58,906 bases of DNA, taken from assembly GCA_035593545.1 (NCBI GenBank), contig DAOSWK010000001.1, positions 1-58,906 of the forward strand. The letters are read 5' to 3'. Below the pieces are notes generated by a model. The model made no database searches and was not told where the DNA came from. It was given only the letters and a program-made list of their open reading frames with translations. The DNA is from Oscillospiraceae bacterium. GTDB taxonomy: Bacteria; Bacillota; Clostridia; Oscillospirales; Ruminococcaceae. This document shows positions 8,501-44,788 of this stretch, in pieces; the stretch's first letter is position 1; the number at the start of each line of letters is the position of its first letter. Position numbers and translations under genes: made by a program.

Positions 8501-9879
8501 ATGCCGGTGAGCTCGGTGATGCGCTCGGGAATATGCTTCTCCGGATCGACGAAGGTGCAGAATTCCTCCCGGATCTCGCCGCCTACAATACGGACCGCGC
8601 CGATCTCGGTGATGCGGTCCATCGTGGCGGAGAGGCCGGTGGTTTCGAGGTCGAAGGCGATGATCTCGCCGTTAAAAGGCACAGCCGCGTTTCCGGTGAC
8701 GGATTGCACCGTATCGTCCACATAGTAGGCCTCGACGCCGTAGATCGGCTTGAAATACGGATCCTTGAGGGCGGCGACGGCGTTCATCACATCCGGAAAG
8801 CCCTGCGCGACGCCGTGATCCGTGATGCCGACGGCCCTGTGGCCCCAGCGGTGCGCCGTCTCGACGAATTTTCCGGCCTCGGTCACGCCGTCCATCTGCG
8901 ACATGTTGGTATGCAGGTGCAGTTCAACGCGCTTCTCCGGCTCGTCGTCCTGCCGGTAAAGGCGTTTGACCGTAGAAATATCATAGGGCCGAATCGTGAT
9001 ATCATGATCGTATTTATCATAGGAGGCGTCGCCCCGGGCCATGATCGTCATGCCCTTTTTGAGATCAAAAAGCGGCCCGGCCTCCTCTTTTTTCTTGATG
9101 ACTTTAAGAATATTGGAACCGGTGTAGTCCGTAATCATAATGGAAAGGATGACGCTCTCCCCATCGCGGGTTTCCCGGCTGTCGATGCTGAAGATGTCGC
9201 CCCAGACCGTGACTTTTCCGCTCTGCTGGTCGATATGGGAGAGCGGCTCCGGGCGCTGGCGGATCGGTTTTCCGATCAAAACCTCCATCTCGGAGGCGTC
9301 GATGGGCAACCCCGAGCAGTCGAAGCCACCCTTTTCCTTTGCCGCATGGGTTCGCTGCTTTGCGGATTCTTTATAAACCGAGGGCTTCGGCTCCGGCAGC
9401 GGCGCCGTGAACTCCGTGACCGCCGTGACGCCGCAGAACTCCACTGCGCAATCGAGGCCGAATTCCTCCCGGATGATCTCTCGGAGCGTCAGGTCGGCGC
9501 GCATTTTTTTGAGCATCTCCTCGCCGCCGTGGGCAAGGCGGATGCGGAGCCGGTTTTCGCAAAATGTTGCCTCCGCGCCGTCAAAAAAGCCGTTGATCGC
9601 GACGCCGCGGCGCTGGGCCTCCGTCAGAAGCTCCGTGAAATAATCCTCCGTCAGCAGTTCCGGTGGATAAACGGAAATAAGCCGGACGTCTTCCACGCCC
9701 AGTCTGACGGCAAGCGCCCGTTCCAGCGCATACAAATCCGATTTTCCCACCGTCTGTTTCGGAGCGATCTCCACCTTGATGCTTTGGCCCTCCCGGCCGA
9801 GCATGACCGAGCGCACCTCCGCTTCCGCCAGAACCGTTCCGGCGGAGATCCCGAAAATTTCCGACAGGGTCTTCCCCAT
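5596..9879 (-). CDS. polC: DNA polymerase III alpha subunit, PolC type
   Basis: 1427 aa with a 3'-5' exonuclease block (FDLETTGL, HNAGFDTGF), a PHP domain, a zinc finger (CPKCKHSEF...CPICG) and a polymerase core. Typical Firmicutes PolC. Confidence 0.98.
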   Translation of the reverse strand: MGKTLSEIFGISAGTVLAEAEVRSVMLGREGQSIKVEIAPKQTVGKSDLYALERALAVRLGVEDVRLISVYPPELLTEDYFTELLTEAQRRGVAINGFFDGAEATFCENRLRIRLAHGGEEMLKKMRADLTLREIIREEFGLDCAVEFCGVTAVTEFTAPLPEPKPSVYKESAKQRTHAAKEKGGFDCSGLPIDASEMEVLIGKPIRQRPEPLSHIDQQSGKVTVWGDIFSIDSRETRDGESVILSIMITDYTGSNILKVIKKKEEAGPLFDLKKGMTIMARGDASYDKYDHDITIRPYDISTVKRLYRQDDEPEKRVELHLHTNMSQMDGVTEAGKFVETAHRWGHRAVGITDHGVAQGFPDVMNAVAALKDPYFKPIYGVEAYYVDDTVQSVTGNAAVPFNGEIIAFDLETTGLSATMDRITEIGAVRIVGGEIREEFCTFVDPEKHIPERITELTGINDSMVRGAPKEEEAYRKFMDFCGPDAFLVAHNAGFDTGFLRMVSDRHHLGFCNSFADTVTMARSLYPELTNHKLDTLSNHLKLAPFNHHRASDDAKELALILLEMLKKIETEKHADNFSALNGLLGGTDPKKLPTYHLILIAKNQKGLKNLYELISLSHIRYFHRHPRVPKSILTQYREGLIVGSACEAGELYTAIREGKPHEELVRLASFYDYLEIQPLDNNRFLVREGMAENDEQLRNWNRQIVALGEELGIPVVATGDVHFLNPEDADYRKIIMNAVGFEHAEEQPSLYFKTTREMLDEFSYLGEEKAREVVITVPNRIADSVDFLRPIPEGTFTPSIEGAEEDLQKMCWKRAHEIYGDPLPPQVSERLEHELSSIIKHGYAVLYVIAQKLVSKSESEGYLVGSRGSVGSSFVASMSGISEVNPLPPHYVCPKCKHSEFVEDGSVGSGFDLPPKKCPICGAEYRRDGHEIPFETFLGFHGDKEPDIDLNFSSEYQTRAHRYTEELFGKSHVFKAGTIGTIAEKTAYGYVKKYCEERGITLHKAEEARLAGGCIGVKRTTGQHPGGMVVIPADHDVTDFCPIQHPADDPDAEVLTTHFDFHSLHDTILKLDELGHEVPMLYKHLEDLTGIRVLDVPMSDEKVYSLLQSPAALGVTPEEIDCKTGTFALPEMGTPFVRQMLMDAKPKNFADLIQIAGLSHGTDVWLGNAQDLIKNGTCTISNVIGTRDSIMTTLIRYGLEPSMAFKIMEITRKGKATKLLTDEHKQAMKEHGVPDWYLDSCLKIKYMFPKAHAVAYDIGAIRTAYFKVYYPLEFYAAFFTVRGGDFDAESALAGKAAVERKIKELEDLSNPTAKEEDSLTTLQIINEMLARGIECLPVDLYRSDAVKYVPEDGKLRLPFTALKGLGETAARSLQVGGTKGPYLSEDDIMARNSVGSGVMDILRAAGVLSGLPKTTQMNLFEMWGGS

Positions 9880-10957: not shown

Positions 10958-11983
10958 TCAGCCTCCATTGACGAGTTTCATGATGTCGTTCGCCGTGACG
11001 TAAATCATCAGCAGAATCAGCAGAATGAAACCCGCGCTATGGATGGCGGACTCCACTTTCTGATTGATGGGTTTCCCGCGGATCGCCTCCAGCAACATAA
11101 AGAGAATGCGTCCGCCGTCCAGCGCGGGCAGCGGCAGCAGGTTGACGACGCCGAGGTTGACCGTGACCAGCGCGACGATAAACAGCAGCGAATCGAGGCT
11201 CTGGGAGCTTGCCTCGGAGATCACCTCCGTGACGCCGACCGGCCCCGAAAGCTGGCTGATCGTGAACGTGCCTTTCAGCAGATCGCCGAAGCCGTGCCAC
11301 GCGAGTTTTACCAGCGCAAACGTCCAACCCGCCGAATATTTCACGACGCGCCAGACCGTCGGCTCCAAGCCGTAGACGCTGAAATCCAATACAATCGAGG
11401 AGACGCCCTCATAGTCCTTCATCTCAAAGACCACGCGGTCGAGCTCCACCTTTTCCCCATCCCGCAGAACCTCCATGCTGACGACGCCGTCCGGATCCCG
11501 GATCAGGGAATACACGATGTCGTTGTCGATCAGAACCTGCTCCCCGTTGACGGAGAGAATTCGGTCGTCCACTTTCAGATATTCTGCGGAGGAAGCCCCT
11601 TCGCTGAACCCGGCGATGACCGGCGTGCCGATCAATTCCTGACCGGAGGTCAAAATCACGGCCAAAATAAAGCCGAGCAGGATGTTCATGAACGCGCCGG
11701 CGGCCGTGACAAGGATGCGCTTCCAGACCGGACAGGCCATAAAAGAGCGCTCGGTCGGGATTTCACTCCCGTCGTCCTCGCCCTCCATGGCGACAAACGC
11801 GCCGATCGGAAATAGGCGCAGGCTGTAGGCCGTCTCTCCCTTTTTGACAGAAAAGAGCTTCGGCCCCATGCCGATTGCGAATTCATTCACTTTTATGCCG
11901 GCCCACTTGGCGGTCAGAAAATGACCCAGTTCGTGGAAAATCAGCATCACCGCAAAGCACAGGACTGCAATCAAAATACTCAT
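10958..11983 (-). CDS. rseP: RIP site-2 zinc metalloprotease (RseP/RasP)
   Basis: HELGHF zinc motif, internal PDZ region, multiple TM segments, C-terminal NLLPLPALDGG. Confidence 0.9.
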   Translation of the reverse strand: MSILIAVLCFAVMLIFHELGHFLTAKWAGIKVNEFAIGMGPKLFSVKKGETAYSLRLFPIGAFVAMEGEDDGSEIPTERSFMACPVWKRILVTAAGAFMNILLGFILAVILTSGQELIGTPVIAGFSEGASSAEYLKVDDRILSVNGEQVLIDNDIVYSLIRDPDGVVSMEVLRDGEKVELDRVVFEMKDYEGVSSIVLDFSVYGLEPTVWRVVKYSAGWTFALVKLAWHGFGDLLKGTFTISQLSGPVGVTEVISEASSQSLDSLLFIVALVTVNLGVVNLLPLPALDGGRILFMLLEAIRGKPINQKVESAIHSAGFILLILLMIYVTANDIMKLVNGG

Positions 11984-22264: not shown

Positions 22265-23656
22265 ATGTCTCGGATGAAGAAGGTGGCTCTTTTGCGTCTC
22301 CATGGAATCGGGTTTGAAGTCCGGTATTCGCCGGCGCTGGAACCCGACTTTATGCCCATTCTGAAATTCAATCGGGCTTATCTGGAAAAAGCCTCCGTTC
22401 CGCTCGGGATCGCCCTGATGCGCCCGGACGGACAGACTTTTTGCTATGAGACAAAACTCCGCGGCACGCCGGAATCCTCTGAGGCGGACCGCTTTTATGT
22501 CGACCGCCTTGTTAAATCCCTGCTCTGGATGAAAGGTGGCTCGCGGCTTCTTGTGCGCGGCAGCGAAGAGATCTGCGAATCCCTAAAAGCCGCCTATGCG
22601 GAGAACGGCAGCCGCGCCTTTGATGCGAACTTCATGGCCGGAATTTACGGGCAGCCTTTTGAAGTTGTCTCCTGCGAGAATCTGCCGGAGGAAAAACTCG
22701 TCTCCCTGCCCGTCGGCGGGCATTTTGACGGGTGCCGGATCGGATTCGACGCGGGCGGCTCGGACCGGAAAGTCTCCGCCGTCATCGACGGCCGGCCCGT
22801 CTATTCGGAGGAGATCGTCTGGAATCCGAAGGAAAATCCGGACCCAGATTATCATTTTCGCGGGATCGTCGCGGCGCTCAAAACAGCCGCCTTCAAAATG
22901 CCCCGGGTCGACGCGGTCGGCATCTCCTCCGCCGGCGTTTTTATCGGCAACCGCACAGTATTTGCCTCCCTGTTCCGCAGTGTGCCGAAAGCGCTTTTTG
23001 AAAGCAAGGTAAGGGATATCTATCCGCGGGCAGTGAAGGAGATCGGGGACATGCCGGTCACGGTCTGCAACGACGGAGATGTCTCCGCGCTCGCGGGCGC
23101 CATGAATCTTGGGCGGAACAACCTGCTCGCCGTCACGATGGGTACGAGCGAGGCGGGCGGCTACATCGACGCATCCGGAGGCCTCACCGGCTGGCTGAAC
23201 GAACTGGCGACCATGCCGGTGGACCTCAATCCGCAAAACGGCCCGGACGGCCGGAGCGGGGATGTCGGCTGCGGCTCCCGCTATTTCAGTCAGGAGACCG
23301 TGATCCGACTCGCACCGGCCGTGGGAATTCGGTTCAGGGGATCCCTTTCCCCGGCGGAAAAGCTCCGGGAGGTGCAATGCCTGCTCGCGGAGGGACATAC
23401 CGGGGCAAAACGGATTTACGAATCCATCGGCGCCTTCCTCGGTCACTCTCTCGCCTATTACTATGACCTTTACGGGTGCGGCACCATCCTGCTGATGGGG
23501 CGCGTCGTCTCCGGAATGGGCGGCGAAATCGCCCTTAAAAAAGCGAACGAGGTGCTCGCCGGGGAATATCCGGAGACGGCGGAGAGGCTCTCCGTGATTC
23601 TGCCGGACGAGACCTCGCGCAGGGTCGGACAGTCGGTCGCGGCGGCGAGCCTCTAA
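22265..23656 (+). CDS. ASKHA-fold sugar kinase-like protein (ROK-family-like) with extra N-terminal domain; start uncertain
   Basis: [14 protein letters not shown] phosphate-1 motif, [29 protein letters not shown]. Divergent from galE. Confidence 0.6.
23606..23650 (+). repeat. direct repeat copy 1 (last 15 sense codons of the ROK-like gene)
   Basis: GACGAGACCTCGCGCAGGGTCGGACAGTCGGTCGCGGCGGCGAGC. Matches 23735-23779 at 43 of 45 positions. Confidence 0.9.
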
Positions 23657-23734: not shown

Positions 23735-23779
23735 GACGAGTCCTCGCGCAGGGTCGGACGGTCGGTCGCGGCGGCGAGC
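23735..23779 (+). repeat. direct repeat copy 2 (non-coding duplicate 129 bp downstream)
   Basis: GACGAGTCCTCGCGCAGGGTCGGACGGTCGGTCGCGGCGGCGAGC. Confidence 0.9.
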
Positions 23780-26686: not shown

Positions 26687-27289
26687 CTAAATCACGCCGA
26701 AATCGGCGAGCGGCCAGAAGATAAAAATCGCCTTACCCATGATGTCCTCTTCGGAAATATACGGGTCGTCCCAATAGCGCGCATCCAGCGAGTCGCCGCG
26801 GTTGTCGCCGAAAAAGAGATAGCAACCCTCCGGCACCTCAAAGTCGCGGGAGACGCGGGAATCGGAGCTGACGTAGTCCTCTTCAAGCTTCTCCCCGTCG
26901 ATATAGACGGAGCCGTTCTTTTTGACCTCAACTTCTTCTCCCGGCAGGCCGACGCAGCGTTTAAAGAGGATCTTGTCCAGTTCCTCCGAATAAAAGACGA
27001 CCACGTCGCCGCGCCCGATGGAGGCCTCCGGATCCCGCACACGGACGGCAAGCGTCCAGTCTCCGGGATTCACGGTCGGCATCATCGAACCGGTCGGCAC
27101 ATAGGCGATGATGAAAAAATAATTAAAAAGCAGCACCGGAATGACGCAGTAAAACAGCAGCGCCTTGCACCAATCGATGATCTCTTTCTTTATTGCGGCC
27201 CGTTTTGCCGCCTTTTTTTCCGCAGAAACCGCATCGGCTTCCTGAATTTTTTCTTCCTGATTCTCTTCCATAAACTCCTCTTGTCTCAT
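26687..27289 (-). CDS. lepB: signal peptidase I (paralog 1); start uncertain (27289 or 27271)
   Basis: PTGSMMPTV (catalytic Ser), KRCVGLPGEEV (Lys), GDNRGDSLDARYW box. ATG 27289 overlaps the upstream stop (ATGA). ATG 27271 has GAGGAG just upstream. Confidence 0.85.
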   Translation of the reverse strand: MRQEEFMEENQEEKIQEADAVSAEKKAAKRAAIKKEIIDWCKALLFYCVIPVLLFNYFFIIAYVPTGSMMPTVNPGDWTLAVRVRDPEASIGRGDVVVFYSEELDKILFKRCVGLPGEEVEVKKNGSVYIDGEKLEEDYVSSDSRVSRDFEVPEGCYLFFGDNRGDSLDARYWDDPYISEEDIMGKAIFIFWPLADFGVI

Positions 27290-27816
27290 TCCAGAGTACC
27301 GAAACTGCCGATCGGCCATAGCACAAACAGCGCCTTACCCATCAGCTTGTCTTCGGAAATATAGGGTTCCTGCCAGTAGCGCGCATCCAGCGAATTGCCG
27401 CGGTTGTCTCCGAAAAAGAGATAGCAGCCCTCCGGCACCTCAAATACGCCCGAATAGTCGGAATCCGAGCTGACATAGGGCTCCGCCAGAAGGTCGCCGT
27501 CGATCCGGACGCTCCCGTCGGATCCGACCGTCACCGTCTCCCCCGGCAGACCGATGCAGCGCTTAATCAGCACCTTGCCCGTCTCGTCGGAACGGAAAAC
27601 CAAAATATCCCCGCGTTCGATGTTCTCTTTGTAGAAAATCCGGGTGGAAAAGAGGGCGCTATGGGTCGGCAACGTCGGCCACATGGATTCGGTCGGTACA
27701 AAATTGATCATAAAGATAAATTTGAGAAGGACAAAAAGTACCAACGCCTCCGTTCCCAGCGGAAGCACCCATTCCCGGAAAAAGCTTTTCATTGTCAGCG
27801 GCTCCGGCGGTTCCAT
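27286..27816 (-). CDS. lepB: signal peptidase I (paralog 2); start uncertain (27816 or 27792)
   Basis: PTESMWPTL, KRCIGLPGETV, GDNRGNSLDARYW. ORF 27286..28074 trimmed because its upstream part overlaps the divergent DUF421 gene region. Confidence 0.85.
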   Translation of the reverse strand: MEPPEPLTMKSFFREWVLPLGTEALVLFVLLKFIFMINFVPTESMWPTLPTHSALFSTRIFYKENIERGDILVFRSDETGKVLIKRCIGLPGETVTVGSDGSVRIDGDLLAEPYVSSDSDYSGVFEVPEGCYLFFGDNRGNSLDARYWQEPYISEDKLMGKALFVLWPIGSFGTLE

Positions 27817-34706: not shown

Positions 34707-35477
34707 CTATGTATTCATCCCCTCGATGCCTTTCAGGAAATCGAGGGTTTTGTAAGTTCGTTCCATTCTGCAAATCGTATACTGCTCCGCAGCCGCCGCA
34801 AGTTCCTTGAGCGCCTCCCCGCCGACTGTAAAGGAAAACAGCTTTTCATCCGGCGCATAGGCGATATGGCGCGCCGCAAAGAAGGCGCTTTTTGAGAGCG
34901 GCAGTCTCCCCGGCTCCGCTTCCGGCATACAGTCGCCGCAGCAGACCTTGCCCTCCTCCGGCGAAAACCAGAAGAACTCCTTTTCGTACTCGCCGCATTC
35001 GCTGCACGCGACGAGATCGGGCCGGAAGCCGGAGATGCTCATCAGGCGCAGTTCGTAGATCGCTTTGAGCTGCTCGGGCGGGCGCTTTTTGTTCTCCAAC
35101 ATATAAAGGGTGTTGAGCGTCAGCCGCAGAATCTCCTCCGAAGGCTCCTCGGCCGGAATACAACTCATGGCAAGTTCACTGAAATAGCTCGCATACGAAA
35201 GGCTCATGAGATCCTCGCGGATGCCAAAGAAAAGTTCTTTCGGTTCGGCGCTGTCGACGGTGCATTTATCCCGGTTCCGAAACAGGACAAACTCGGCATA
35301 ACACAGCGGCGACGCACAGCAGGAAAAGCGATTTTTGAGTTTCGAGGCGCCGCCGGCATAGGCCGTCACAATGCCGGCATCCTTTGTCAGGATGGTCAGC
35401 AGCTTATCGCTCTCTTTATAATCCTGTGTCCTGAGAATCAGGCCCTCCGTCTTGATCTGCACGCTTGATCTCCACAT
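34707..35477 (-). CDS. recO: DNA repair protein RecO
   Basis: KTEGLILRTQDYKESDKLLTILT OB-fold start and a CxxC...CxxC zinc motif (CSECG...CCGDC). GTG 35462 (GGAG 7 nt upstream) is an alternative start. Confidence 0.9.
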   Translation of the reverse strand: MWRSSVQIKTEGLILRTQDYKESDKLLTILTKDAGIVTAYAGGASKLKNRFSCCASPLCYAEFVLFRNRDKCTVDSAEPKELFFGIREDLMSLSYASYFSELAMSCIPAEEPSEEILRLTLNTLYMLENKKRPPEQLKAIYELRLMSISGFRPDLVACSECGEYEKEFFWFSPEEGKVCCGDCMPEAEPGRLPLSKSAFFAARHIAYAPDEKLFSFTVGGEALKELAAAAEQYTICRMERTYKTLDFLKGIEGMNT

Positions 35478-35658
35478 CCTCCGCGAGCGCCGGCTTAATC
35501 ATGGTGGTGTCGCTTTTCCCTACTTCTTCGGCGAGCGCGGGTTTAATTTCCCCATTGTTGTATTTGGCATGAAGGCTCTTGTCCTTCGAGGCGCTGTAAT
35601 GGATATAATCCGAAACCTTTCCGGTTTTAAAGAAATTGTCCCAACTGTTGTTTTCCAT
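35416..35658 (-). CDS. YqzL-like small protein with extended repeat-containing C-terminus
   Basis: Last 80 codons of ORF 35416..35805, from ATG 35658 (GGAGGG upstream). The WDNFFKTGKVSDYIHY start resembles YqzL, which sits between era and recO in Bacillus. The tail overlaps the recO start. Confidence 0.55.
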   Translation of the reverse strand: MENNSWDNFFKTGKVSDYIHYSASKDKSLHAKYNNGEIKPALAEEVGKSDTTMIKPALAEDVEIKRADQDGGPDSQDTGL

Positions 35659-35821
35659 GGATTTTCCCTCCGAATCGCAAATTTGTTCAAAAACAGTGTA
35701 TGTCTTTTTCACTTCGCTATGTGAGGGAAAATCCGTTAATTCAAAAAGTCGGCCCCGGGCGTCTGTGAAAATGCAAAATCCGCGGCCTATGAGCCGGTGC
35801 CTCATTTTATTTTATGACGAC

Positions 35822-35878
35822 GTTTCGTGTGGGCTTGACGAAGCCAAAATCCCGGCCCTCGGCCGGAAAACACGAAAC
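35822..35878. repeat. Y-element A (three-way-junction-forming unit)
   Basis: P1 GTTTCGTGT/ACACGAAAC; P2 GGCTT[GACG]AAGCC; P3 CCGGCC[CTC]GGCCGG. All pairs Watson-Crick. Flanks TTTATGACGACG and CTCGCAAC. Confidence 0.8.
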
Positions 35879-35939
35879 TCGCAACACTTTTATCAGTACT
35901 GCGGTATATCACCCGGCACCCTGTTTCGTTTATGACGAC

Positions 35940-36002
35940 GTTTTGCGTGGTTCCGCCGAAGGCGGAATCCGGGCCGTGCTTTTCGGCCCGGAAATGCAAA
36001 AC
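35940..36002. repeat. Y-element B
   Basis: P1 GTTTTGC/GCAAAAC; P2 TTCCGCC[GAA]GGCGGAA; P3 CCGGGCCG[TGCTTTT]CGGCCCGG. Same flanks as A. Confidence 0.8.
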
Positions 36003-36063
36003 TCGCAACACTTTTATCAGTACTGCGGTATATCACCCGGCACCCTGTTTCGTTTATGACGAC

Positions 36064-36126
36064 GTTTTGCGTGGTTCCGCCGAAGGCGGAATCCGGGCCG
36101 TGCTTTTCGGCCCGGAAATGCAAAAC
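36064..36126. repeat. Y-element C (identical to B)
   Basis: Exact copy of 35940-36002, followed by CTCGCAGC and the era terminator hairpin. Confidence 0.8.
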
Positions 36127-36131
36127 TCGCA

Positions 36132-36161
36132 GCATATGATCCGGCACTCCGGAACATATGC
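36132..36161 (-). terminator. hairpin directly after the era stop (possible terminator; weak U-tract)
   Basis: GCATATG...TCCGG/CCGGA...CATATGC long hairpin, overlapping the TAG by 1 nt. Followed on the minus strand by TGCGAGTTTTGCATTT. Confidence 0.4.
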
Positions 36162-37060
36162 TATTTCTCTGTGAATCCGAAATTGCGCAGAAGGCCCTCG
36201 CGGTTGCGCCAGTCCTCTTTCACCTTCACCCAAAGCTGAAGGTTGACCTTGCAGGCGAGGAAGCGTTCCAGCTCCTCACGGGCCTCGATACCGATTTTTT
36301 TGAGCATGGCGCCTTTCTTGCCAATAATGATGCCTTTGTGGCTATCCTTTTCGCAGTAAATCGTGGCCTCAATGTCGATAAGCTCCTTGTCCTCCCGCTC
36401 TTTCATGCTCTCGATGCCGACCGCGATGCCGTGCGGCACCTCGTCGGAGAGATCGGTCAGCAGCTTTTCGCGGATCAACTCCGCCGCGACGGCCCTTTCC
36501 GGCATGTCGGTGAGGATGTCGTCCTCAAAAAAATGCGGGCCGGGCTGAGCATATTTGCCGATTTCCTCAAGCAAAATGTCGAGGCCGTCGCCCGTCAGCG
36601 CGGAGATCGGAACCACCTGATCGAAATCAAATTCTTTGGAGAAAGCGGCGATCTTCGCGAGCATGGCCTCTTTATTTTGCAGGAGATCGATCTTGTTGAT
36701 GCAGAGAATCGCCGGCAGGCCCTGATCCCTGAAACGCTGCATCAGGTCAAGTTCCGCTTTAGCGATTTCCCCCAGCGGCTCCGTGACGAGCACCGCAAGA
36801 TCCACATCCGCCACGGATTCGCCGACCTGTTTCACCATGTACTCGGCGAGCTTGCTGCGCGGCTGGTGCAGGCCGGGCGTATCCAGAAAGACAAGTTGCA
36901 GCGGGCCTTTGGTGAGAACGCCGGTGATCCGCGTACGGGTCGTCTGGGGCTTCGCCGAAACGGCAGCGACCTTTTCGCCGAGAAACGCATTCAGTAAAGA
37001 GCTTTTTCCGACATTCGGCCGGCCGACGATGGCGACAAACGCGCCTTTGGTTTCTTCCAT
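36161..37060 (-). CDS. era: GTPase Era
   Basis: ORF 36161..37105 trimmed to ATG 37060 (MEETKGAFVAIVGRPNVGKSSL). G1-G4 motifs and a C-terminal KH domain. Confidence 0.95.
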   Translation of the reverse strand: MEETKGAFVAIVGRPNVGKSSLLNAFLGEKVAAVSAKPQTTRTRITGVLTKGPLQLVFLDTPGLHQPRSKLAEYMVKQVGESVADVDLAVLVTEPLGEIAKAELDLMQRFRDQGLPAILCINKIDLLQNKEAMLAKIAAFSKEFDFDQVVPISALTGDGLDILLEEIGKYAQPGPHFFEDDILTDMPERAVAAELIREKLLTDLSDEVPHGIAVGIESMKEREDKELIDIEATIYCEKDSHKGIIIGKKGAMLKKIGIEAREELERFLACKVNLQLWVKVKEDWRNREGLLRNFGFTEK

Positions 37061-37126
37061 CCGATGAAAAATCCTTTCTTTGCCGAAAAATCCTTCCGGC
37101 CTCATGTCCTCCGGTTTCGCGGCGGC

Positions 37127-41560: not shown

Positions 41561-41605
41561 TCCGCTCACCGATACATAGCTTCTCAGGGGCCACATCCGG
41601 CTGCT

Positions 41606-41650
41606 GCGACGAGTTTTCGTGTGCGCGAAGCAACACCGACGGCCATTTTG
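41606..41650. repeat. Y-element D (5' fragment only)
   Basis: GCGACGAG-TTTTC, P2 GTGTGC[GCGAA]GCA(A)CAC, and the P3 5' arm CGACGGCC. The partner arms are missing and are replaced by element E. Confidence 0.7.
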
Positions 41651-41658
41651 TCCGGGAT

Positions 41659-41720
41659 CGAATATTCCGGTTCCGTTTACGGAATGCCGGTCCGGCTCTT
41701 GGACCGGCAGGGAATATTCG
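41659..41720. repeat. Y-element E
   Basis: P1 CGAATATTCC/GGAATATTCG; P2 TTCCG[TTTA]CGGAA; P3 GCCGGTCC[GGCTCTT]GGACCGGC. Followed by CAGCCCTTTTAGGGCGGT. Confidence 0.8.
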
Positions 41721-41756
41721 CAGCCCTTTTAGGGCGGTTTTAGGCTAATCGTACGA

Positions 41757-41815
41757 CGAGTTTTCGTGTGCGCGAAGCACACCGACGGCCTGCTTTTGGC
41801 CGTCGAGAAAACTCG
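41757..41815. repeat. Y-element F
   Basis: P1 CGAGTTTTC/GAAAACTCG; P2 GTGTGC[GCGAA]GCACAC; P3 CGACGGCC[TGCTTTT]GGCCGTCG. Junctions are 0-1 nt. Followed by CAGCCCTTTTAGGGCGGT. Confidence 0.8.
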
Positions 41816-41856
41816 CAGCCCTTTTAGGGCGGTATAAAAAAGAAAGGAACTAAAAA

Positions 41857-42429
41857 ATGAGTGAATTGGACACGCTGCGCCGGGAATGCCTCGACTGCCG
41901 GAAGTGCGGCCTGTGCGAAACCAGGAACAACGTGGTCTTCGGTACGGGGAATCCGAATGCAAGGGTGATGTTTATCGGCGAAGGCCCCGGCGAACAGGAG
42001 GACCTGACCGGCCAGCCTTTCGTCGGGCGTGGCGGTATACTTCTGGACAAGATGCTGGCGGCGGTGGATCTCTCGCGGGATAAAAATATTTACATAGCAA
42101 ATATGGTCAAATGCCGCCCTCCGAAAAACCGTGATCCGGAGGAGGAAGAGGTTCAGGCCTGCCGCGCGTGGCTGCGGGAACAGATCCGTCTGATCGACCC
42201 GAAATTGATCGTCTGCCTCGGCAGGATCGCGGCGTTTCGTTTCATTGGGCCGGATTTTCGCGTCACAAAGGAACATGGGCAGTGGAAAGAGGTCGACGGC
42301 CGGCTCGTGATGGGTACTTTCCGCCCTGCCGCCCTGCTGCGCAACCCGCATCAGAAACCGGAAGGCATGGAGGATTTTTTCGCTCTCGAAGAAAAAATCC
42401 GGGAGGTCTGTCCGGAAACCTACGAATGA
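41857..42429 (+). CDS. uracil-DNA glycosylase, family 4
   Basis: CRKCGLCETRNNVVFGTGNPNARVMFIGEGPG and NMVKCRPPKNRDP motifs. Confidence 0.9.
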   Translation: MSELDTLRRECLDCRKCGLCETRNNVVFGTGNPNARVMFIGEGPGEQEDLTGQPFVGRGGILLDKMLAAVDLSRDKNIYIANMVKCRPPKNRDPEEEEVQACRAWLREQIRLIDPKLIVCLGRIAAFRFIGPDFRVTKEHGQWKEVDGRLVMGTFRPAALLRNPHQKPEGMEDFFALEEKIREVCPETYE

Positions 42430-44714: not shown

Positions 44715-44788
44715 TGGAGCGGATAACGGGAATCGAACCCGCCTATCCGGCTTGGGAAGCCGGTGTTCTACCAATGAACTATATCCGC
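44715..44788 (-). tRNA. tRNA-Gly (anticodon CCC), CCA encoded
   Basis: Minus strand GCGGATATAGTTCATTGGTAGAACACCGGCTTCCCAAGCCGGATAGGCGGGTTCGATTCCCGTTATCCGCTCCA. It has a 7-bp acceptor stem, anticodon loop UUCCCAA, and T-loop GGTTCGATTCC. Confidence 0.95.

Follow-up and report, generated by a model that had tools for sequence, protein, structure and literature searches.

A tandem array of three-way-junction repeats in the era–recO operon of an Oscillospiraceae bacterium

The intergenic region between era and recO in an Oscillospiraceae bacterium carries a tandem array of units that fold into perfect three-way junctions. The DNA analysed is a stretch of 58,906 nt (assembly GCA_035593545.1, contig DAOSWK010000001.1, positions 1 to 58,906), hereafter called the window. 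We consider it probable, though far from certain, that the array is a lineage-specific, tandemly amplified, non-coding and structured intergenic repeat of the broad BIME/REP–BOX–MITE kind. The repeat is real and undescribed, and the pattern is better explained by a young structured repeat than by a conserved functional RNA. Both era (36161..37105) and recO (34707..35477) are encoded on the minus strand, and a small open reading frame (ORF) between them (35416-35658, minus strand, start at 35658) overlaps recO. The gene calls agree with an earlier note on this DNA that the spacer of about 500 nt between the era stop at 36161 and the start of the small ORF at 35658 is non-coding.

The array at the era site is composed of three intact units, named A to C, a linker, a hairpin (H0) and a decayed remnant. 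Bit scores are those of R1, a covariance model built from ten units.

36053..36133 (core 36064-36126), minus strand: unit C, the era-proximal three-way junction (Y), returned by the perfect-Y scanner; 106.9 bits.
35929..36009 (core 35940-36002), minus strand: unit B, within a 124-nt duplication; 105.3 bits.
35811..35885 (core 35822-35878), minus strand: unit A, which aligns with the other units; 73.5 bits.
35886..35928, with an identical copy at 36010-36052, minus strand: linker, holding a degenerate H0-like hairpin.
36132..36161, minus strand: hairpin H0, directly next to the era stop codon, whose last base it includes.
35748..35787, minus strand: decayed 5' remnant of a further unit, nearest the small ORF, matched to the consensus by eye (GCCGCGGATTTTGCATTTTCACAGACGCCCGGGGCCGAC).

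In brief, a repeat unit of about 105-124 nt consists of a small variable H0-like hairpin followed by a three-way junction of 57-63 nt with helices P1, P2 and P3. A scanner that counts only junctions made of Watson-Crick pairs returned exactly the helices that the earlier note had drawn at the three cores. P1, P2 and P3 are 9, 5 and 6 bp long in unit A, and 7, 7 and 8-9 bp in units B and C, whose cores are identical. Unit A has a shorter P3 loop and a P2 in another pairing register, and is the homologue of unit V3 in the related locus L024. The 5' flank TTTATGACGACG and the 3' flank CTCGCA, previously reported as identical around A, B and C, proved to be so when checked in the sequence. The span of unit C takes in the conserved base GCTGCGAG...CGTCGTCATAA. 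This base, extended as GCTGCGAG-TTTT...AAAA-CGTCGTCATAA, behaves like a terminal inverted repeat, and each intact unit has an inverted repeat of 9-13 bp at the base of P1 (GCGAGTTTT... / ...AAAAC(G)TCG(T)C). In the era sense the unit consensus reads GCTGCGAG TTTTGCA TTT CCGGGCCG AAAAGCA CGGCCCGG A in its 5' half and continues as TTCCGCC TTC GGCGGAA CCA CGCAAAA CGTCGTCATAAAC in its 3' half.

H0 reads GCATATG(T)TCCGG AGTG CCGGATCATATGC and folds as DNA with -12.8 kcal/mol (z = -6.05); its equivalents lie at 10944-10973 in L024 and 2171-2200 in a second related locus, L037. In alignments the linker matches the H0 right arm as well as the linkers found in L024 and L037. The remnant at 35748-35787, which R1 misses, is also present in these two loci.

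The junction is the minimum free energy structure predicted by RNAfold for every unit and on both strands (-33 to -43 kcal/mol), with z-scores from -3.9 to -5.9 and none of 200 shuffles folding equally well. DNA folding parameters give the same three-way junction. Perfect Y folds are about 40 times commoner in the window than in shuffled sequence: it has six of them, whereas 20 dinucleotide shuffles averaged 0.15, and five of the six lie at two sites, the era site and the spacer between the genes for PTAC and UDG. The sixth, at 9034-9080 inside polC, has a P1 of 6 bp and stems of 5 and 7 bp. It has no sequence likeness to the repeat family and no match to R1, and is probably due to chance.

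That the array is an insertion follows from its distribution among relatives. The Era homologues found are named Oscillospiraceae, and their contigs come from anaerobic-digester metagenomes. Contigs with an identical Era protein hold three units (L001) or two (L002 and L003), and L001 differs from the window by a single-nucleotide polymorphism (SNP) across 6.9 kb, by which a G-C pair becomes G-U when read on the era-sense strand. Loci L024-L026, at 94% Era identity, have a spacer of 535 nt with four units, V1-V4. V1 resembles B but has a compensated P1 change, V2 is one long hairpin built on the same base, V3 resembles A with its P2 in another register, and V4 resembles B with both P1 and P3 broken. 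At least four units are present in L037, which belongs to the GTDB representative metagenome-assembled genome (MAG), and in L022, which comes from a metagenome. L027 (90% Era identity) has array remnants only. L029, L045 and L046 (73-77% Era identity) have no array, and their spacer of 77-99 nt holds only a hairpin that sequesters the Shine-Dalgarno sequence. The short spacers of the last three indicate an ancestrally compact operon into which the array was inserted, as the earlier note had supposed.

The array is young and unstable. Tandem Repeats Finder reports a period of 124 nt with 2.1 copies at 100% identity (35875-36131), and L002 and L003, despite their identical Era protein, have the 124-nt block once. 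The block is thus a single recent duplication, in line with the earlier proposal. The array of L037 is interrupted by a run of 100 Ns (2373-2472), whereas the sequence of L022, of the same lineage, is continuous between the units on either side of the gap; assembly of L037 probably failed here because of the tandem repeat. Copy number differs among near-identical strains, and units decay. A unit was inserted, in an ancestor of one narrow Oscillospiraceae clade, into the formerly compact spacer, after the era stop codon and ahead of the hairpin by which the leader of the small ORF masks its ribosome-binding site. We suggest that the array grows and shrinks by replication slippage or unequal recombination between its tandem units.

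No known family accounts for the fold. A cmscan of the whole window against Rfam 15 at the gathering threshold gave only a tRNA (44718-44788), and in E-value mode both sites and the L024 array gave noise, with E of at least 0.36 and scores far below gathering. This bears out the view that the fold is unlike any Rfam family. A search against plasmids and phages with blastn in distant mode gave no match, and two scans of viral contigs for the flank pattern gave nine matches, all due to chance and without the fold. The flank pattern TTATGACGAYGTTT-N26-56-AAACT-N0-1-GCA was found at 12 loci in 185,579 species-representative genomes. Only one of these, the era locus of the Oscillospiraceae MAG (L037), has the fold and the other 11 are chance matches; the era locus is also the only one in that MAG to match. 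A metagenome scan likewise gave 12 loci, 11 by chance and one true (L022, also an era locus). A covariance-model search of the kind proposed in the earlier note was run with R1. It recovered all units at both sites of the window (E 1e-9 to 1e-24) and no further copy elsewhere in the sequence covered, about 210 kb from other loci, including 10 kb outside the window. The family is restricted to a single species-level clade. Two other candidates were discarded. A CRISPR repeat had a sole match at E = 0.77, and a hammerhead-like or purine-riboswitch-like junction found neither a conserved core nor a cmscan match.

The copies near 41.6 kb to which the earlier note had pointed are real. They lie in the spacer between PTAC and UDG.

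41750..41819 (core 41757-41815), minus strand: unit D, a perfect Y; 52 bits with R1, E = 4e-10.
41652..41724 (core 41659-41720), minus strand: unit E', a perfect Y with a P1 of 10 bp; 49.2 bits with R1.
41606..41644, minus strand: truncated D-like copy, recognised by direct comparison with D.

Unit D has TAAAAG.GCTGCGAG, the AAAAGCA loop and CTCGTCGT in common with the units at the era site, and unit E' folds as DNA with z = -6.4. The truncated copy holds the equivalents of one P1 arm, P2 and one P3 arm. Each second-site unit is followed by the same small hairpin, GCCCT TTT AGGGC, and GGT (41724-41736 and 41819-41831), indicating that the true repeat unit exceeds the Y core. Read on the opposite strand, this hairpin corresponds to the H0-like hairpin and TAAAAG.GCTGCGAG motif that precede the era-site units. 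The PTAC–UDG spacer is 296 nt long with the units and only 64-115 nt without them in L024, L025 and L027. The second site, absent in relatives with 90-94% Era identity, is therefore specific to the lineage of this strain. Across the two sites every unit points the same way on the chromosome, in direct tandem; those at the era site are sense to the operon and those at the second site antisense to PTAC and UDG.

Both insertion sites adjoin DNA-repair genes, recO and mutS2 at the first (34707-36161) and a family-4 UDG at the second (41561-42429). With two sites 5.5 kb apart, this may be a coincidence.

A copy at a distance of 5.5 kb, found in this strain only, raises the question of mobility. The units could be a non-autonomous mobile element, MITE- or REP-like, whose folded single-stranded DNA is the target of a transposase encoded elsewhere, and which inserted into the spacer and was then locally amplified. 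The inverted repeat at the P1 base, with its conserved outer motifs, would serve as terminal repeat, and presence or absence differs at two orthologous spacers. The shared chromosomal orientation at both sites in spite of opposed flanking genes and the equally good fold as DNA also agree with such an element. Furthermore, the conserved bulged nucleotides at the P1 base resemble hairpins recognised by HUH enzymes. We nevertheless regard this explanation as unlikely. About 69 kb of this genome hold only the two sites, close together, and the GTDB representative MAG has no second locus with the flank pattern. A target-site duplication cannot be defined as the empty spacers are too diverged to align, and no direct repeat is evident at the borders of the units. 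No transposase or integrase Pfam match was found among the scanned ORFs of the window or the neighbour tables of this strain's loci, nor in the precomputed Pfam matches around era of close relatives, except that L024 has an IstB_IS21 gene some 9 kb upstream of era. The GTAG motif of REPs is also missing from the units.

How the stems stay paired bears on whether structure is selected. It should be noted that all units align as sequence homologues, with the base GCTGCGAG...CGTCGTCATAA and the loops conserved. The claim that A and B differ at most helix positions with every change compensated did not survive this alignment: A and B have the P3 core CCGG(G)CC in common, the difference in P2 is a change of pairing register, and only 2-3 pairs of P1 are truly compensated. 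Across the family, however, the stems do covary. In a MAFFT alignment 12 of 27 pairs are changed on both sides and 91% of cells are paired, values that none of 500 shuffles reach and that compare with at most 49% paired in slid controls. A model-based alignment of 15 distinct units gave 14 of 27 pairs changed on both sides and 94% of cells paired; slid controls across the alignments reach at most 51%. Five of the seven P1 pairs of E' and three pairs in P3 of D are changed, all compensated.

The same was observed for H0. Six of its 13 stem pairs are replaced in L024 relative to the window and L037, mostly by transversions and all compensated (L024 reads GCATTTCAACAAC AGTG GTTGTTGAAATGC). The AGTG loop and both flanks are identical in the three, and the window lineage has one uncompensated T.T mismatch.

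The earlier note took this pattern as the signature of selection on structure and not on sequence. Its novel structured element is real and its anatomy was described accurately, and the stems covary beyond both types of control, so that this part of the claim stands. The part on selection is unsupported or overstated, given the homology of the units, their conserved loops and base, the three or four units that no longer form the fold, strand symmetry and opposed orientations, and the restriction to one species-level clade. There is also an alternative source of paired stems. Template switching during replication can make and repair perfect stems without selection, and clustered changes together with partner switching are its expected products (PMC8794818). 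Both occur here. In V1, ACGC has become GTGT with one change in the opposite arm, and three adjacent changes lengthen P1; GTGTG pairs as an arm of P1 in unit A and as an arm of P2 in unit D; and P2 in A is re-registered against V3 and U2.

Taken to its limit, this mechanism would make the array a pure mutational by-product, in which template switching or slippage at a quasi-palindromic spacer creates hairpins that are neither functional nor mobile. Clustered multi-base changes that raise complementarity, as in V1, bases that switch partner between homologous units, the equivalence of the strands and a documented mechanism (PMC8794818) all agree with this. We consider it very unlikely as a full account, as it does not explain why the first unit, the loops and the base are conserved in sequence, or why a homologous unit occurs 5.5 kb away. 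Nor can a single template switch alter both arms of H0, which leaves the change in this hairpin without explanation. Under the reading of a young, amplified repeat, selection for a stable fold and intra-strand template switching, where one arm is copied from the other, probably both keep the stems paired.

Neutral divergence was gauged from four-fold sites of era, recO, mutS2 and phoH, which are 74-80% identical between the window and L024 and 79-87% identical between the window and L037, and 76-83% identical for these lineages overall. The era-proximal unit is 93% identical to that of L024 (binomial P 6e-5) and 96% identical to that of L037 (P 5e-4), resembling the flanking coding DNA in this respect. 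Identity above that of four-fold sites points to some constraint on at least the first unit, the H0 loop and the base motif. Only the era-proximal unit is constrained in sequence, and most units are therefore probably dispensable by-products.

Such constraint would be expected of a functional cis-acting RNA in the era mRNA, either a regulator in the 3' untranslated region or operon, a junction that binds a protein or ligand, or a stabiliser. The structure would then be under selection, with the extra units as recent duplicates. Besides the conservation of the era-proximal unit and of the H0 loop and flanks above the neutral level, the strong covariation of the stems and the fixed place immediately after the era stop codon point in this direction. 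The sole SNP between L001 and the window in 6.9 kb does so too, since it is wobble-compatible only on the era-sense strand. We find this explanation possible but doubtful. The array is absent from all relatives with 77% Era identity or less and already decayed at 90%, the 41.7-kb units lie antisense to the genes around them, and Rfam gave no match. The two strands fold equally well, with G-U pairs at 20/304 against 16/301, and for several variants, such as TTCCGTC/GGCGGAA in L037 and L022, it is only the antisense strand that forms a G-U pair. Units V4, X2506 and X2610 have lost much of the fold, with -20 to -27 instead of about -40 kcal/mol. Finally, the junctions are almost without unpaired bases and have no conserved junction nucleotides of the kind that form a ligand pocket.

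No sigma-70-like promoter was predicted in the array on either strand, and a small RNA expressed from its own promoter in the linker was rejected on this ground. A loose terminator consensus has three weak matches against 1.6 expected, consisting of P3 of unit A and the linker hairpins (36027-36004 and 35903-35880). P3 of unit A is followed by UUUUGG, and H0 by UGCGAGUUUU, which is not adjacent to the stem. An array of type III antitoxin RNA was also rejected, as the small ORF occurs with or without the array and the two are unlinked.

We see a slim chance that the junction represents a new functional class. It could be an era-adjacent RNA module that sets the era:recO ratio or is bound by a protein, or the structure by which a mobile element is recognised as folded single-stranded DNA. 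If so, the hypervariable paired stems and the invariant loops and base would mark the features that are recognised.

The array could in principle encode small proteins, from the plus-strand ORFs 35814..36059 and 35932..36174, which start at the conserved ATGACGACG, or from ORFs on the minus strand. An ATG does lie within the most conserved flank motif and the ORFs are 80-84 aa long, yet we find a coding role hardly credible, in agreement with the earlier note. Successive units fall out of frame, as their periods are 118 and 124 nt, V1 and V4 lack the ATG, no Shine-Dalgarno sequence precedes it, ORF length varies with copy number, and there is no Pfam match even at E = 1.

Based on these observations, we favour a structured repeat that expands locally and whose effect on its host operon is secondary. 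The array has no promoter of its own and would most likely be transcribed within the era–small ORF–recO mRNA. There, junctions of -33 to -43 kcal/mol may act as barriers to 3'-exonucleases or as processing or pause sites, and could make era partly independent of the genes that follow it, an effect also proposed for REP and BOX elements. Any effect on the co-transcribed mRNA is probably incidental, although the first unit has possibly been co-opted.

Several observations weigh against this reading. Neither a target-site duplication nor a transposase or parent insertion sequence was found for the second site. A purely selfish repeat would not be expected to keep its era-proximal unit and H0 loop conserved beyond the neutral rate, as is seen here. 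In H0, six of 13 pairs have been replaced with compensation beside invariant flanks, which no single template switch explains. The collection scans required exact flanks and would miss divergent members elsewhere, and the R1 search of this genome covered about 69 kb, in which it met two sites.

Between the array and the small ORF lies a leader that is context and not part of the repeat:

35659..35744, minus strand: small-ORF leader, ancestral spacer with a 12-bp helix that sequesters the Shine-Dalgarno sequence.

The arms of this helix, GGATTTTCCCTC and GAGGGAAAATCC, stand immediately ahead of the ATG. Over 88 nt the leader is 100% identical among the window, L024 and L037, although four-fold sites differ by 17-24%. 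An equivalent helix of other sequence is found in L029 (10916-10991), L045 (4931-5015), L046 (4853-4950) and L027 (about 10970-11050). As distant relatives keep the helix with a different sequence, the leader helix covaries. Rfam gave no match over the leader. Possibly it is a conserved element that controls translation of the ORF at the yqzL position. This ORF is found in all relatives examined, with the array present or absent. The name yqzL-like used in the earlier note is a provisional label, based on the place of the ORF between era and recO and on a short N-terminal resemblance; the ORF has no Pfam or NCBIfam match, even at E = 1.

The Pfam matches in the window are to housekeeping families, among them PolC, IspG, RseP-like, Dxr, CdsA, a sigma factor, MnmA, signal peptidases, MutS2, RecO, Era, YbeY, PhoH, PTAC, UDG and ClpC, and UvrAB sits immediately outside it. 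Two other direct repeats were observed. One, of 45 nt and 96% identity (family D16), has copies at 23606-23650 and 23735-23779 with a spacing of 129 nt; the first is located at the end of an ORF call without Pfam match and the second belongs to the following ORF call. The other, of 300 nt and 73% identity with a spacing of 602 nt (26697-27598), corresponds to two neighbouring Peptidase_S26 paralogues and is an ordinary tandem duplication of signal-peptidase genes.

If the favoured reading is correct, the array represents a clean and datable birth of a structured repeat in a compact housekeeping operon, with amplification, upkeep of the stems and decay all inside one species-level clade. It would be useful for the study of compensatory evolution versus template switching, and is a warning that covariation by itself is no proof of a functional RNA. 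The array probably also accounts for the N run in the assembly of the GTDB representative MAG, and its copy number may be of use as a strain marker in anaerobic-digester metagenomes. Should the era-proximal unit be functional, it would be a new cis element for era and recO expression in Oscillospiraceae.

Among known systems, REP, BIME and REPIN elements (PMC3116915, PMC2817692) are similar in being extragenic, palindromic and lineage-specific, and in having composite arrays and compensated stems. They too are found between co-transcribed genes, where the upstream mRNA can be stabilised. REPs, however, are simple hairpins of 20-40 nt with a 5' GTAG, linked to RAYT and present in hundreds of copies, and the orientation of REPs in a BIME alternates. 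The units described here are three-way junctions of 57-63 nt in direct tandem, seen at two sites. GTAG is absent from them, the 5' motif being GCTGCGAG or TTATGACGACG; no RAYT was found in the available sequence of this strain; and all units point in the same direction at both sites, with no alternation.

Pneumococcal BOX elements (boxA-boxB(n)-boxC), RUP and SPRITE are likewise small, modular, non-coding repeats of Firmicutes with extensive predicted secondary structure. Their narrow range suggests a parasitic or neutral origin, and an effect on co-transcribed genes is expected. The array has variable tandem modules of the BOX type, with 2, 3, 4 or at least 4 units in close strains. BOX has more than 100 dispersed copies per genome and no three-way-junction architecture, whereas the present repeat appears to be low-copy and local. 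A relationship in sequence is not expected; we draw an analogy only and claim no membership. On evidence of this sort, Croucher et al. judged the narrowly distributed BOX, RUP and SPRITE parasitic yet likely to act, via their structure, on co-transcribed genes (PMC3049150).

MITEs such as Correia, ERIC and RUP (PMC3184786, PMC2229807) combine terminal inverted repeats with a short non-coding body, show insertion polymorphism among close relatives and fold as RNA when co-transcribed. Terminal inverted repeats and presence/absence polymorphism at both orthologous spacers were found here as well. The copies of a MITE normally share their internal sequence, whereas the internal stems here differ yet stay paired, and MITEs differ further in that no target-site duplication or parent insertion sequence was identified for this repeat.

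The attC sites of integrons are comparable in that structure is conserved above sequence, with a bulged conserved base and a variable, possibly branched end, and in that they form arrays and are recognised as folded single-stranded DNA. We rejected attC because the R''/R' consensus RYYYAAC / GTTRRRY is absent. The base reads G(C/T)TGCGAG ... CGTCGTC, so that GCTGCGAG / CGTCGTC stands in place of the attC core sites; positions 5 and 7 of GTTGCGA break RRRY, and most copies begin with GCT. No cassettes or integrase were found among the scanned ORFs of the window. In addition, attC folds strand-specifically, whereas the two strands are equivalent here.

Hairpins generated by template switching (PMC8794818) have perfect stems, multi-base compensated changes, partner switching and no strand polarity in common with the array. 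Template switching is a mutational mechanism and not an element family, and alone it leaves the conserved loops and base and the second site unexplained. We assign the repeat to none of the REP/BIME, BOX, MITE or attC families. What distinguishes it from them is a unit that is itself a three-way junction, arranged in direct tandem, present in low copy number and only locally, and inserted in the era–recO operon.

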